Below, piece by piece: positions 15,001 to 18,000 of a DNA stretch of 64,000 nt; the first letter of the stretch is position 1, and every line of letters starts with the position of its first letter. A program made the position numbers. The DNA is from a virus (lineage: Duplodnaviria; Caudoviricetes), in IMG/VR virus record IMGVR_UViG_3300031760_000048, positions 4,018-68,017 of that record, one strand, 5' to 3'.

Positions 15001-18000
15001 CGGTTGCAAAAGTAGTAAAAAATAAATGTAATAGCAAATTTTTTTATTGATTTAATACATATAAAAATGCTATTTACCTGTTTTAACGCATTTTACGAGT
15101 GTTTATTGGAATAGGAAAAATTTTTTCTGTTGTAACATAAGCGCATTTTGAATAAATTACAATGTACATATAATATTCAGATAATAAAAAGAGGTAAAGT
15201 CTATTCTTTGAAAAATTAAACATAATGGAATCACCGTTAATAAATCAAGATAGTAGACAATATTTTGATGGTCAGTTATTACAGTCTATTTTTAGGACCA
15301 GTAAGAAGACCATCCAAGAATATGTTTGGGAATTATACAGACATAACCAATATAAAACTATCAATTCGCAGGCTGGGGTGACATACGTTGCCGATGACCG
15401 GTCCTCATTGATTGATTTGTATGATGCTTGTGTGCAGCAAGACGCTCATTTGCAGGGTGTCTTGGATACTGTGGATTCTCAGGTTGTTGGCGAAAGATAT
15501 ATGCTGGCAAGGATAAATGAAGGCGGTAAATATATCAAGGATGTAGAAGCTACTAAGAAGATTCAGGGTACGCAGTTTGAAAAGCTTATTCGTGGAATCA
15601 TTGAAGCAAAGTGGTATGGCTATACTTTGATTGAAATTTGTCCTGACATCAATCCCTTGACTGGTAAGTTGGCGGAAATAAACATCGTAGAGCGTCGAAA
15701 CGTACTCCCTTCTCAGAAAGCGGTCGTATTGAGACAGGGTGAGTATTATCCGCATTGGGATTTGACGGCAGACGGCTACAAAGACAGATATGTCTTGATA
15801 GATAATGGTGATTTGGGCAAATTTGCAGCAACCACCCCATTGATTTTGGCAAAGAAATTTACGCTTGCTAATTATGTAAATTTCTCGCATACTTATGGAC
15901 AGCCGATTATACATGGCAAATCTGAGAGCGAAAGCACCAGTGACAGAAACAAGCTTGCCAATGAAATTGCCAGTGCCGCACAGAATAAGATTATCGTAAC
16001 AGGTTTGAATGATGATATAGACATTAAGACTTTTGCTGCGTCAAATTCAGAGCATATATACACATCTTTGATAGATGTTACGAATAAAGAGGTGTCTAAC
16101 CTTATTGTAGGTTCTGGTAGTATGGCTGGTGAGCAGCAATCGTATGTAGGTTCTACCGCTGCCCATCAGGATATTTTCCGCGAGCGTATTGATAATTATC
16201 GAAATTTTGTGGAAAATCAGATGAATGAGGAAGTTATCCCTCGCTTGGTAAAAATGGGGTATCTTTCAGAAGGACTGGTATTCAAGTATGCTGCGCGCGC
16301 TGAAATGTCTAATAAGGATAAGATTGCTCTCTACAATTTCCTGAGTAGTAGATATGAGATTACGGCTGAAGAAATTGAAAAGGAGTTCGGCGTGGTAGTA
16401 GGACAACAGCTTAATGCGGAACAGGTGAAGATGCAGATTGCTGCAAGTCAGGCAGCAATGGCAGGTGCTGGTGGTCGTGGAAGTGGTAATGTCGGACGTA
16501 ATCCGCACGATAATGGTTTGATGTCTGACCAAGAGTATTATTTGCGCTATGGTCATGAGCGCGGAACGACTAAGCGTAAATTACAAAGCGGTCAGGGGGC
16601 AATAACAAATTTTTTGAAGGAAGGGGATTAGCCGACTCTCCTTCCGCAAAAGAACAAGGCACTACTGATGAAGAAGATGAGGAGAAGCGTGAGTACGCTG
16701 CACTGTACCGCATCTTCAAAGAGTTCGTGAACAATATAGGTCGTGAAACACGAATGGCTGAATTGTTCGAAGAGCTGGCTGAATTACGCGCACAGTTCAT
16801 GATTGAAAGTGCTATTGATGGCTTCGGAATGGACTGGGAAGAAGCGTTGGATTTGCTGCGAGCAAAGAACAAAGGATTGACGATACAGGATAAAGAGAAG
16901 CGTGATATTCTTGTGGCTGCAGTAGATAATTTGATTGAATTTGCAGTAGCTGCGGAATTTCAAGTAATAGATAATTGTATTGGTGCGGATGGTGAGGTTG
17001 ACGAGAGCATATTTGAAAAATATAATGATGTTTATGCAGAAGTTGAGGCTGCTGATGCCTCGTATGCAATGGCGGTAGCTGCCGCTTGGGTACATTACGC
17101 TAACACATCTATTTTGACTTATATGACACAAGGGGATGATAGGGTACGACCTTGGCATCTGGCTTTGGAAGGAATTTCTTATCCCAAATCAGATTTCCCA
17201 GATTGGCTTATTCCGCCTATTGAACATAGATGCAGATGTTATCTTGTTGAAGAAGTATTGGGTGCGCATACTGATGAAATTTTGTGCAAGGCTGATGAAA
17301 AGATAAAAATGCCATCTTGGATGAACCCTACTTTCTCAGAGAGTGTATGTAAGGGCGGCAGAATCTTTAGTTTATCGCACCCTTACTTTGACATTCCTGA
17401 AGATAAGCAGAAGGCAATATCTCGTATAACCCGTAAAATTCAGAAAAAATGGCGGAACAAATAGCAGCATCTGCAAGCAAAGAAGCGGCAAAAAGGAGAT
17501 ATAAAAAACCTCTGATTAAAACCACATATACAGTACTCACGCCAGAGCAGATGAAAGCGCAATGGTATCAAGCTACTGCTCGTTTCTTTTCATTGACGCA
17601 TACACTTGTCTATAATGCGGCAGTCATTACCAGAGATGTGTTTGTCGAGTCTTTTAAGATGAAACGATTTCAGACGGAGGGCAGTATGCCTTGGACCCCA
17701 AGAAAAAGAATTGGAGTGCGTGAAGGTAGTACTCGTCAGCATCCGTTATTGGTTGAAACTGGGGCGATGCGGGACTCTATTAAATTTTCAAGTCCTATTA
17801 CGAATGTTAGCGCTAAGACGCGAACGATGGAAATTACGACTAAGCCGCATCTTTATAAAACAAGGTCTAAGCGTAATCCTAATGGAATTATATATGCCGG
17901 TATTCACAATCAGGGAATAGGCAATATTCCACAGCGTCAGTTTATGGGATATTCAACGGTAGCTTTTGGGCGAATCAATAATAAAATTGAGCAGTTGTTT

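Follow-up and report, generated by a model that had tools for sequence, protein, structure and literature searches.

A probable programmed -1 frameshift joining portal and MuF proteins in Mu-type head modules of Bacteroidota phages

How is a minor head protein made when its reading frame offers no usable start codon ahead of its first conserved helix? The question arises from a stretch of 64,000 nucleotides of a gut phage (hereafter, the window; positions 4,018 to 68,017 of the Caudoviricetes record IMGVR_UViG_3300031760_000048, a 68-kb virus record with an estimated completeness of 61%), whose nearest named relative is the temperate, 112-kb Bacteroides phage BS-TP1. In the head module of the window, a Mu-type portal gene stops at 16629-16631, and the open reading frame (ORF) of a MuF-type minor head protein overlaps the end of the portal gene in the -1 frame, which is preceded by a TAA at 16577-16579 and closed by a stop at 17462-17464. 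A first reading of this DNA, made from the sequence alone (hereafter, the sequence-only reading), had proposed that a programmed -1 frameshift fuses the two proteins. Comparison with relatives makes it, in our view, very likely that a programmed -1 ribosomal frameshift produces a portal-MuF fusion of ~746 amino acids (aa).

The identity of both partners is supported. The upstream ORF matches the Portal_Mu profile PF06074 with 148.6 bits (cut-off, 23.9). The downstream product has weak matches to head morphogenesis families of PHROG, and its AlphaFold2 (AF2) model, built from a 43-sequence alignment (predicted local distance difference test score [pLDDT], 88.4), has the MuF fold: its best-scoring hits in BFVD carry the label "phage head morphogenesis domain" (TMq 0.55-0.60, E 4e-8 to 1e-7). 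Both names given in the sequence-only reading therefore stand, the portal by its profile and MuF by its fold (TMq 0.60, E 4e-8). The window does not contain an in-frame fusion gene, since the portal frame is closed at 16629 and MuF is encoded in the -1 frame; under the frameshift reading, it works like a portal-MuF fusion gene without being one.

Slippery heptamer and hairpin at the portal-MuF junction

The junction combines the elements of a canonical -1 signal, namely an X XXY YYZ heptamer in register, a spacer followed by a stable stem-loop, and an overlapping -1 ORF under coding selection (Table 1). The portal codons end ACA AAT TTT TTG AAG GAA GGG GAT TAG, which gives the zero-frame product the C-terminus ...AITNFLKEGD*. 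Our re-reading of the sequence reproduced what the sequence-only reading had described: the heptamer at 16607-16613 and the portal end were exact, as were the 5-nt spacer and the 9-bp hairpin at 16619-16645 (the minimum free energy [MFE] structure from RNAfold is identical), the -1 frame is open from 16580 into MuF with no ATG/GTG/TTG before 16727, and the junction peptide AITNFFEGR is correct as a translation. Taken alone, the window offers one in-frame heptamer in a 52-nt overlap and a hairpin with z of about -2, a signal that exceeds chance only modestly, and the weight of the argument rests on relatives.

We collected relatives from a portal search (22 IMG/VR loci), from an alignment query (51 loci of bacterial genomes and metagenome-assembled genomes, Bacteroidales nearly throughout, and the best 80 of 271 IMG/VR relatives), and by adding two phage records and the distant Peternella_1 record L025, for 137 sources in total, including the window. 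Portal and MuF are both present in 120 of them, which collapse to 82 distinct junction sequences. The other 17 comprise 7 loci that run off the contig, 1 with only 270 nt downstream, and 9 without MuF. Relative to the portal, MuF occupies the -1 frame at 110 of these 120 loci, where that frame runs open past the portal stop, and the +1 frame at the other 10.

The heptamer is strongly conserved. Of the 82 distinct junctions, 66 have AAATTTT in the portal register 12 to 18 nt upstream of the portal stop. In an alignment of 56 distinct 53-nt segments (A2), no column is invariant apart from those of the seven heptamer bases and of two stem-base G. Conservation extends to synonymous positions: the residue before the heptamer Asn is one of eight amino acids, and the third base of its codon is A in all 66 junctions (GCA in 28, GAA in 14, GTA in 9, ACA in 8, GGA in 3, TCA in 2, and AAA and CTA in 1 each). 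The background in the same portal genes is an A at 0.206 of four-fold third positions, AAT for 52% of Asn codons, and TTT for 41% of Phe codons. Several clades have a -1-frame stop (TGA or TAA) that directly abuts the AAA on its upstream side; the shift window in those clades is therefore confined to the stretch from the heptamer to the portal stop (heptamer plus 12-18 nt).

Heptamers of the form H_HH.U_UU.Y (H = U, C, or A) rank among the most efficient in Escherichia coli, and the tetramer U_UU.U is shift-prone by itself given a 3' stimulator, according to PMC4066793. A second in-register heptamer, T TTT TTG (16610-16616), overlaps the first one in the window and could add to slippage there. 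Because TTTTTTN is present in only 15 of the 66 heptamer junctions, T TTT TTG is not a conserved slip site.

The hairpin that follows the spacer consists of the arms GGAAGGGGA (16619-16627) and TCTCCTTCC (16637-16645), with one G-U pair, and of the loop TTAGCCGAC (16628-16636), which contains the portal stop TAG. RNAfold on 81 nt predicts exactly this stem (MFE, -17.8 kcal/mol; z, -2.06), and 6 of 200 shuffled sequences fold equally well. In all 66 heptamer junctions, a stem core begins ~5 nt past the heptamer, with energies from -11.7 to -26.0 kcal/mol over the 50 nt downstream. To align the arms across relatives, we used a covariance model of a 10-bp stem, made from 12 in-register sequences, with which 86 loci were searched. 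In the resulting alignment of 64 rows (A4), 95.8% of cells are paired (slid controls, 44-68%), double changes occur in 10 of 10 modelled pairs, and the number of double-change cells is 118, versus 26.7 in shuffles (reached in 0 of 500). Eleven of the 64 rows are off target, being minus-strand images or other places; the 53 on-target rows are 95.3% paired (slid controls, 45-70%) and contain 30 distinct 5' arms. The hairpin is not terminator-like, as neither an intrinsic terminator nor a terminator-like T run was found at it, and Rfam gave no family match within 16300-17000 of the window.

The frameshift that the sequence-only reading proposed is thus supported by AAATTTT in 66 of 82 junctions, by a covarying hairpin ~5 nt downstream, and by a -1 overlap in 110 of 120 loci. 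We propose the following course of events. On A AAU UUU, the P site of the ribosome would be occupied by tRNA-Asn and the A site by tRNA-Phe while the hairpin 5 nt downstream resists unwinding and stimulates the slip. In a fraction of ribosomes, both tRNAs would re-pair one base back (AAA UUU), and reading would continue in the -1 frame. Unshifted ribosomes would terminate five codons on and release the 468-aa portal, and in the shifted product of ~746 aa, portal residues 1-463 would be followed by ~20 aa of disordered acidic linker and then by the complete MuF domain.

In the established portal structure, the C-terminus points into the capsid, and the fusion would therefore place MuF inside the procapsid. 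There, plain and fused portal would co-assemble, with MuF carried by some of the 12 portal subunits and its copy number set at about 12 times the frameshift efficiency.

The linker without a start codon

Does the frame between the slip site and MuF encode protein, and could translation begin within it? In the 66 heptamer junctions, the stretch between the portal stop and the MuF match (8,964 nt altogether) has no stop in the -1 frame, compared with 83 stops for the portal frame and 266 for the +1 frame. We also compared differences at codon positions 1/2/3 of the -1 frame in 160 close pairs. They amount to 0.121/0.064/0.116 in the hairpin region, which is under dual constraint, 0.152/0.118/0.285 in the variable linker, 0.106/0.037/0.298 in the conserved motif upstream of the window's ATG, and 0.062/0.021/0.239 in MuF proper. 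By this measure, the variable linker carries a weak coding signature, and the conserved motif upstream of the ATG evolves like MuF proper, i.e., as coding sequence.

Start codons are scarce in the same stretch. Between the slip site and the E-Y motif of the first MuF helix, there is no ATG/GTG/TTG in 37 of the 66 junctions, and in 16 of the 66, the window and 15 others, there is no CTG/ATT/ATC/ATA either. In the AF2 model of the window product, the portion of this helix formed by residues 20-40 is encoded before GTG 16727, the first canonical start of the frame, and only the last two helix residues come from the GTG onward. The motif is well conserved among the 66 relatives (F in 66, E in 61, and Y in 59), and these three residues are encoded upstream of that GTG. 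Because there is no usable start upstream of the first conserved helix in the window, MuF is probably made there solely as a fusion.

Deposited annotations have placed the start of MuF elsewhere. In BS-TP1, which infects Bacteroides salyersiae and shares the heptamer and hairpin with the window, MuF (L023:4410-5186) begins at an internal ATG 114 nt past the portal stop, and in Elizabethkingia phage TCUEAP3 (L139:3904-4917), it begins at an internal ATG 275 nt past it. Both annotations lose conserved N-terminal sequence and leave unexplained intergenic gaps. At present, gene callers either truncate the N-terminus of MuF, as in these two phages, or leave long gaps with no apparent explanation.

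Table 1. Features of the portal-MuF junction and of the adjoining head module, in window coordinates
Feature	Coordinates	Strand	Remarks
Mu-type portal gene, 468 aa	15225-16631	+	PF06074 profile; phrog_113 (portal protein)
-1 ORF (linker and MuF)	16580-17464	+	Would be read from 16613 after the slip, adding ~283 aa to portal residues 1-463
Slippery heptamer A AAT TTT	16607-16613	+	AAT (Asn) in the P site and TTT (Phe) in the A site; in X XXY YYZ register with the portal codons
Variable acidic linker, predicted disordered	16613-16663	+	pLDDT below 50 (residues 1-18, counted from 16607)
Spacer TTGAA, 5 nt	16614-16618	+	
Hairpin, 9-bp stem and 9-nt loop	16619-16645	+	MFE structure; covariation
First MuF helix, motif E-Y-x2-[IL]-x3-F	16664-16732	+	Residues 20-42, confident helix
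GTG, first canonical start in the -1 frame	16727-16729	+	Encodes residue 41; not conserved as a start
ATG, next start in the -1 frame	16754-16756	+	Residue 50, inside helix 2 (47-72); possible, non-conserved internal start
Tail completion/Neck1-like head-module gene	17449-18018	+	phrog_26; directly after portal in MuF-less relatives
ClpP-like protease domain and Mu gpI-like scaffold region, one ORF	18823-20106	+	PF00574 and PF10123

Departures from the layout and competing explanations

Relatives in which the arrangement differs provide natural controls. Three clades with MuF in the +1 frame (L030/L111/L123; L059/L060; L069) have a MuF with its own ATG at -8 to +10 from the portal stop. Their Asn-Phe codons read AAC TTT, AAT TTC, or G AAT TTT, so that the heptamer is absent, and they have no hairpin (0 to -6.3 kcal/mol). 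The signal is thus lost where MuF has its own start. The junction of L018 also reads G AAT TTT. In a clade of eight junctions (L034, L098, L112, L119, L121, L124, L125, and L131), the portal tail is SFLMGSD or DFLMGSD, and the Ser or Asp in place of Asn destroys the heptamer and keeps the tetramer T TTT. Seven of the eight have an ATG at +20 from the portal stop, directly past the 3' arm of the hairpin; in L098, the only one without it, MuF looks disrupted.

In nine prophage loci (L033, L035, L036, L041, L044, L046, L047, L070, and L132), there is no MuF despite ~3 kb of downstream sequence; a Neck1/tail-completion-like gene directly follows the portal, whose tail lacks the NF motif. MuF is therefore dispensable in some lineages. 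On a FastTree phylogeny of 89 portals, from which the last 12 codons had been removed, the frameshift layout (65 rows) requires 6 changes, versus a mean of 21.3 when shuffled.

Several observations count against the frameshift reading or limit the evidence for it. The match of the window's -1 ORF to the Phage_Mu_F/SPP1 gp7 profile PF04233 scores 25.2 bits, under the 29.6 cut-off. The efficiency ranking of the A AAU UUU class was obtained in E. coli, and the host phylum here is Bacteroidota. RNAalifold on a plain MAFFT alignment of the 56 junctions found no consensus stem and returned five pairs that carry no meaning, since loops of unequal length put the 3' arms out of register. Alignment A4 was itself fitted to the model structure, a bias in favor of that structure; despite it, the slid controls and the variety of 5' arms argue that the stem is real. 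The SFLMGSD/DFLMGSD clade retains the hairpin (about -17 kcal/mol) though its heptamer is lost, which makes a second role of the hairpin possible: in that clade, it may also couple translation, or weaker slippage may persist on T TTT. An ATG lies at -4 to +53 from the portal stop in 9 of the 66 heptamer junctions, and independent MuF synthesis may therefore coexist with the shift there. Finally, the association between loss of the heptamer and gain of a nearby ATG has the predicted direction and is not significant (sign test, median p 0.5), because there are only 3-5 independent contrasts.

Could MuF be made without any slip of the ribosome? If MuF were an ordinary separate gene, it would start at GTG 16727 or ATG 16754, the first canonical starts of its frame, and the upstream frame, the heptamer, and the hairpin would be incidental. 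The annotators of BS-TP1 did call MuF from an internal ATG, and ATG 16754 is kept in three near-identical variant contigs of the window (95-99% identical), with no change listed at 16754-16756. The GTG, however, is GTA in all three variants and falls in an alignment column occupied by I, L, and V (28, 22, and 16 of 66), and the column of the ATG holds Arg in 37 of 66. These data contradict a MuF start at 16727 and speak against one at the next ATG; independent initiation at either codon was among the results that the sequence-only reading had named as speaking against a frameshift. Moreover, either start would delete a confidently predicted and conserved helix, the stretch upstream has the substitution pattern and the freedom from stops of coding sequence, and the conservation of heptamer and hairpin would be left unexplained, so that we consider a separate gene highly improbable. 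In the one variant contig for which all 34 differences are listed, none falls within 16605-16683; the differences listed for the other two contigs are a partial set.

Alternatively, MuF might be made separately through non-canonical initiation or through termination and reinitiation near the portal stop, with the hairpin serving in translational coupling. Initiation in Bacteroidota takes place without Shine-Dalgarno pairing, and this explanation would agree with the hairpin and the adjacent ATG of the SFLMGSD/DFLMGSD clade and with the nine heptamer junctions that have an ATG near the portal stop. Against it, the window and 15 other junctions have neither an NTG nor an ATN codon in the -1 frame from the heptamer to the conserved helix, and it accounts neither for a heptamer that is invariant even at synonymous positions and always preceded by a third-position A nor for a -1 frame that opens exactly at AAA in several clades. 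We therefore judge separate synthesis of this kind to be very unlikely. The same fusion could also arise by transcriptional slippage, if RNA polymerase skipped a base within the T run. In the window, A3 is followed by T6, and the A9-A10 runs of a distant Peternella-like clade make such slippage plausible there, but most relatives have only T4 after AAA, e.g., AAATTTTCT or AAATTTTAT, well below the lengths known for polymerase slippage. The covariation of the hairpin and its constant 5-nt spacing agree with slippage of the ribosome rather than of the polymerase, and no indel variants were seen in contigs, in which rare RNA variants would be invisible. Transcriptional slippage as the general route to the fusion thus appears extremely improbable. 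Stop-codon reassignment or readthrough was considered and rejected: MuF is in the -1 frame and not in the zero frame, in which the 83 stops lie downstream, and relatives end the portal with any of TAA, TAG, and TGA.

Breadth of the arrangement and relation to known systems

If portal and MuF are joined by recoding in the window, one may ask whether other phages join them in the DNA. Covalent portal-MuF proteins do occur in nature and are viable: when longer proteins homologous to the -1 product were sought, in-frame Portal_Mu+Mu_F proteins came up, of 729 aa (P0002, 47% identical to the window's -1 product), 738 aa (P0003), and 951 aa (P0004, from Flavobacteriales). In P0002 and P0003, which carry a precomputed PF04233 assignment, the portal RYGH motif runs without interruption through a linker into the E-Y-x-x-I-x-x-x-F helix. 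P0004 has an additional C-terminal region of ~250 aa with an HExxH-like motif (HEVAH), possibly a metallopeptidase-like cargo domain.

Putative recoding signals also appear in more distant phages. The portal of Elizabethkingia phage TCUEAP3 is ~21% identical to that of the window, and its gene has A AAT TTT 18 nt before the stop, then a hairpin, and a 441-codon -1 MuF ORF with the first start at +275; no relatives of this portal were found in IMG/VR or in the phage collection. In eight Peternella-like loci of marine flavobacterial phages, the portal gene ends with A AAA AAA or A AAA AAG 0-18 nt before its stop, with MuF in the -1 frame. These loci share a conserved peptide immediately downstream of the A run, and their first starts lie at +68 to +458.

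To survey the class Bacteroidia, we sampled 401 genomes, 21 of which have Portal_Mu, and analyzed 20 loci (we dropped two fragments and a locus that the collection already contained). An in-frame Portal_Mu+Mu_F fusion is present in 4 of the 20 loci (L156, L157, L159, and L163). In six loci, a -1 MuF ORF spans the portal stop, and a canonical heptamer precedes that stop by 0-9 nt: three have A AAA AAG, two have G GGA AAG, and one has A AAT TTT. One of these six also has a GTG at +14. Another six have a separate MuF gene with its own ATG at -11 to -1, and the remaining four have no long ORF across the stop. The -1 ORFs of eight loci from other clades score 35-63 bits against PF04233. Separate MuF starts are also found in Flavobacterium phages FPSV-S27 and lotta8-2.

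Taking these data together, we think it rather probable that portal-to-MuF recoding constitutes a conserved class of frameshift across Mu-type head modules of Bacteroidota phages, in most of which MuF would exist only as a start-less frameshift extension, attached covalently to a minority of the portal subunits. The pattern concerns many Bacteroidales prophages and gut phages.

A close counterpart is the conserved -1 frameshift of phage tail assembly chaperones (lambda G/GT type), reportedly described by Xu, Hendrix, and Duda in 2004, as cited in PMC7911831 and PMC6316719. As in that type, a slippery heptamer sits near the end of the upstream structural gene, a fixed fraction of the product would be extended into an overlapping -1 ORF, and the arrangement is conserved by position among divergent phages while sequences drift. 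Unlike in that type, the gene pair here is portal and MuF, in the head module; what is added is a complete, folded minor head protein, which other phages encode in a gene of its own; and a conserved, covarying hairpin lies on the 3' side.

Portal and MuF are joined in one polypeptide, in the same order, by the in-frame gene fusions of Microbacterium phages in clusters EA3, EA5, EA8, and EB, as described in PMC7302621. A single ORF there puts MuF on every portal subunit, whereas here, with two frames joined by recoding, plain and extended portal would occur side by side. In SPP1, according to PMC6316719, the portal gp6 carries a few copies of the MuF-type minor head protein gp7 into the procapsid interior; that link is non-covalent and between separate gene products, whereas the one proposed here would be covalent and set by translation. 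The combination of an X XXY YYZ heptamer with a 3' stem-loop is shared with the dnaX and IS3/IS911-type signals, as described in PMC4066793, in whose scheme A_AA.U_UU.U belongs to the H_HH.U_UU.Y class; sister clades use A AAA AAG and G GGA AAG. Unlike in dnaX and IS3/IS911, an upstream Shine-Dalgarno-like stimulator is neither evident here nor expected in Bacteroidota, and the host phylum and gene context are different.

Literature searches yielded no report of a portal-to-MuF frameshift, with supplementary files, which may hold such annotations, lying outside the search. The word "portal" is absent from the PRFect paper and from the 300,000 characters, out of 449,034, that were searched in a 2016 recoding review (PMC5009743), and the word "frameshift" is absent from the BS-TP1 paper. 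The mechanism is canonical; what is new is the gene pair, the conservation across Bacteroidota phages, and the implication for how MuF is loaded into the head. How minor head proteins reach the capsid interior at a fixed low copy number is a standing question, and a ratio of plain to MuF-tagged portal that is set by translation would, if true, be a simple answer to it. Recoding at this junction would also be a conserved head-gene site in a phylum that lacks Shine-Dalgarno signals, and it would extend the rules of frameshifting beyond E. coli.

MuF often bears toxin-like cargo domains, and tethering to the portal would alter the picture of how such cargo is packaged and delivered. CdiA_C-like, LPD3, or PBECR2 nuclease-like C-terminal domains of the MuF polymorphic-toxin type were seen on MuF ORFs of other clades (L145:3778-5070, L167:113-1480 on the minus strand, L161:2559-3839, L153:2469-3857, L173:233-1483 on the minus strand, and L157:1303-3837). 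These ORFs are reached by a putative frameshift or an in-frame fusion, and their cargo would be tethered to the portal.

In the window, the ORF with ClpP-like and Mu gpI-like regions (Table 1) is likely the prohead protease and, as such, a candidate for later processing of the portal-MuF fusion. In sister clades with CdiA_C-like or nuclease-like cargo, release by the prohead protease would be needed, if the fusion is made, before the cargo could be ejected with DNA. The one true RNA run found for the window, which consists of contigs like the other runs, covers 16300-16329 only and thus falls short of the junction. Just upstream of the head module, two ORFs lie on the minus strand: a short tyrosine-recombinase-like ORF at 12436-13023, named by visual inspection of its translation, and a dUTPase-like ORF at 13234-13674, assigned by synteny with gp49 of BS-TP1.

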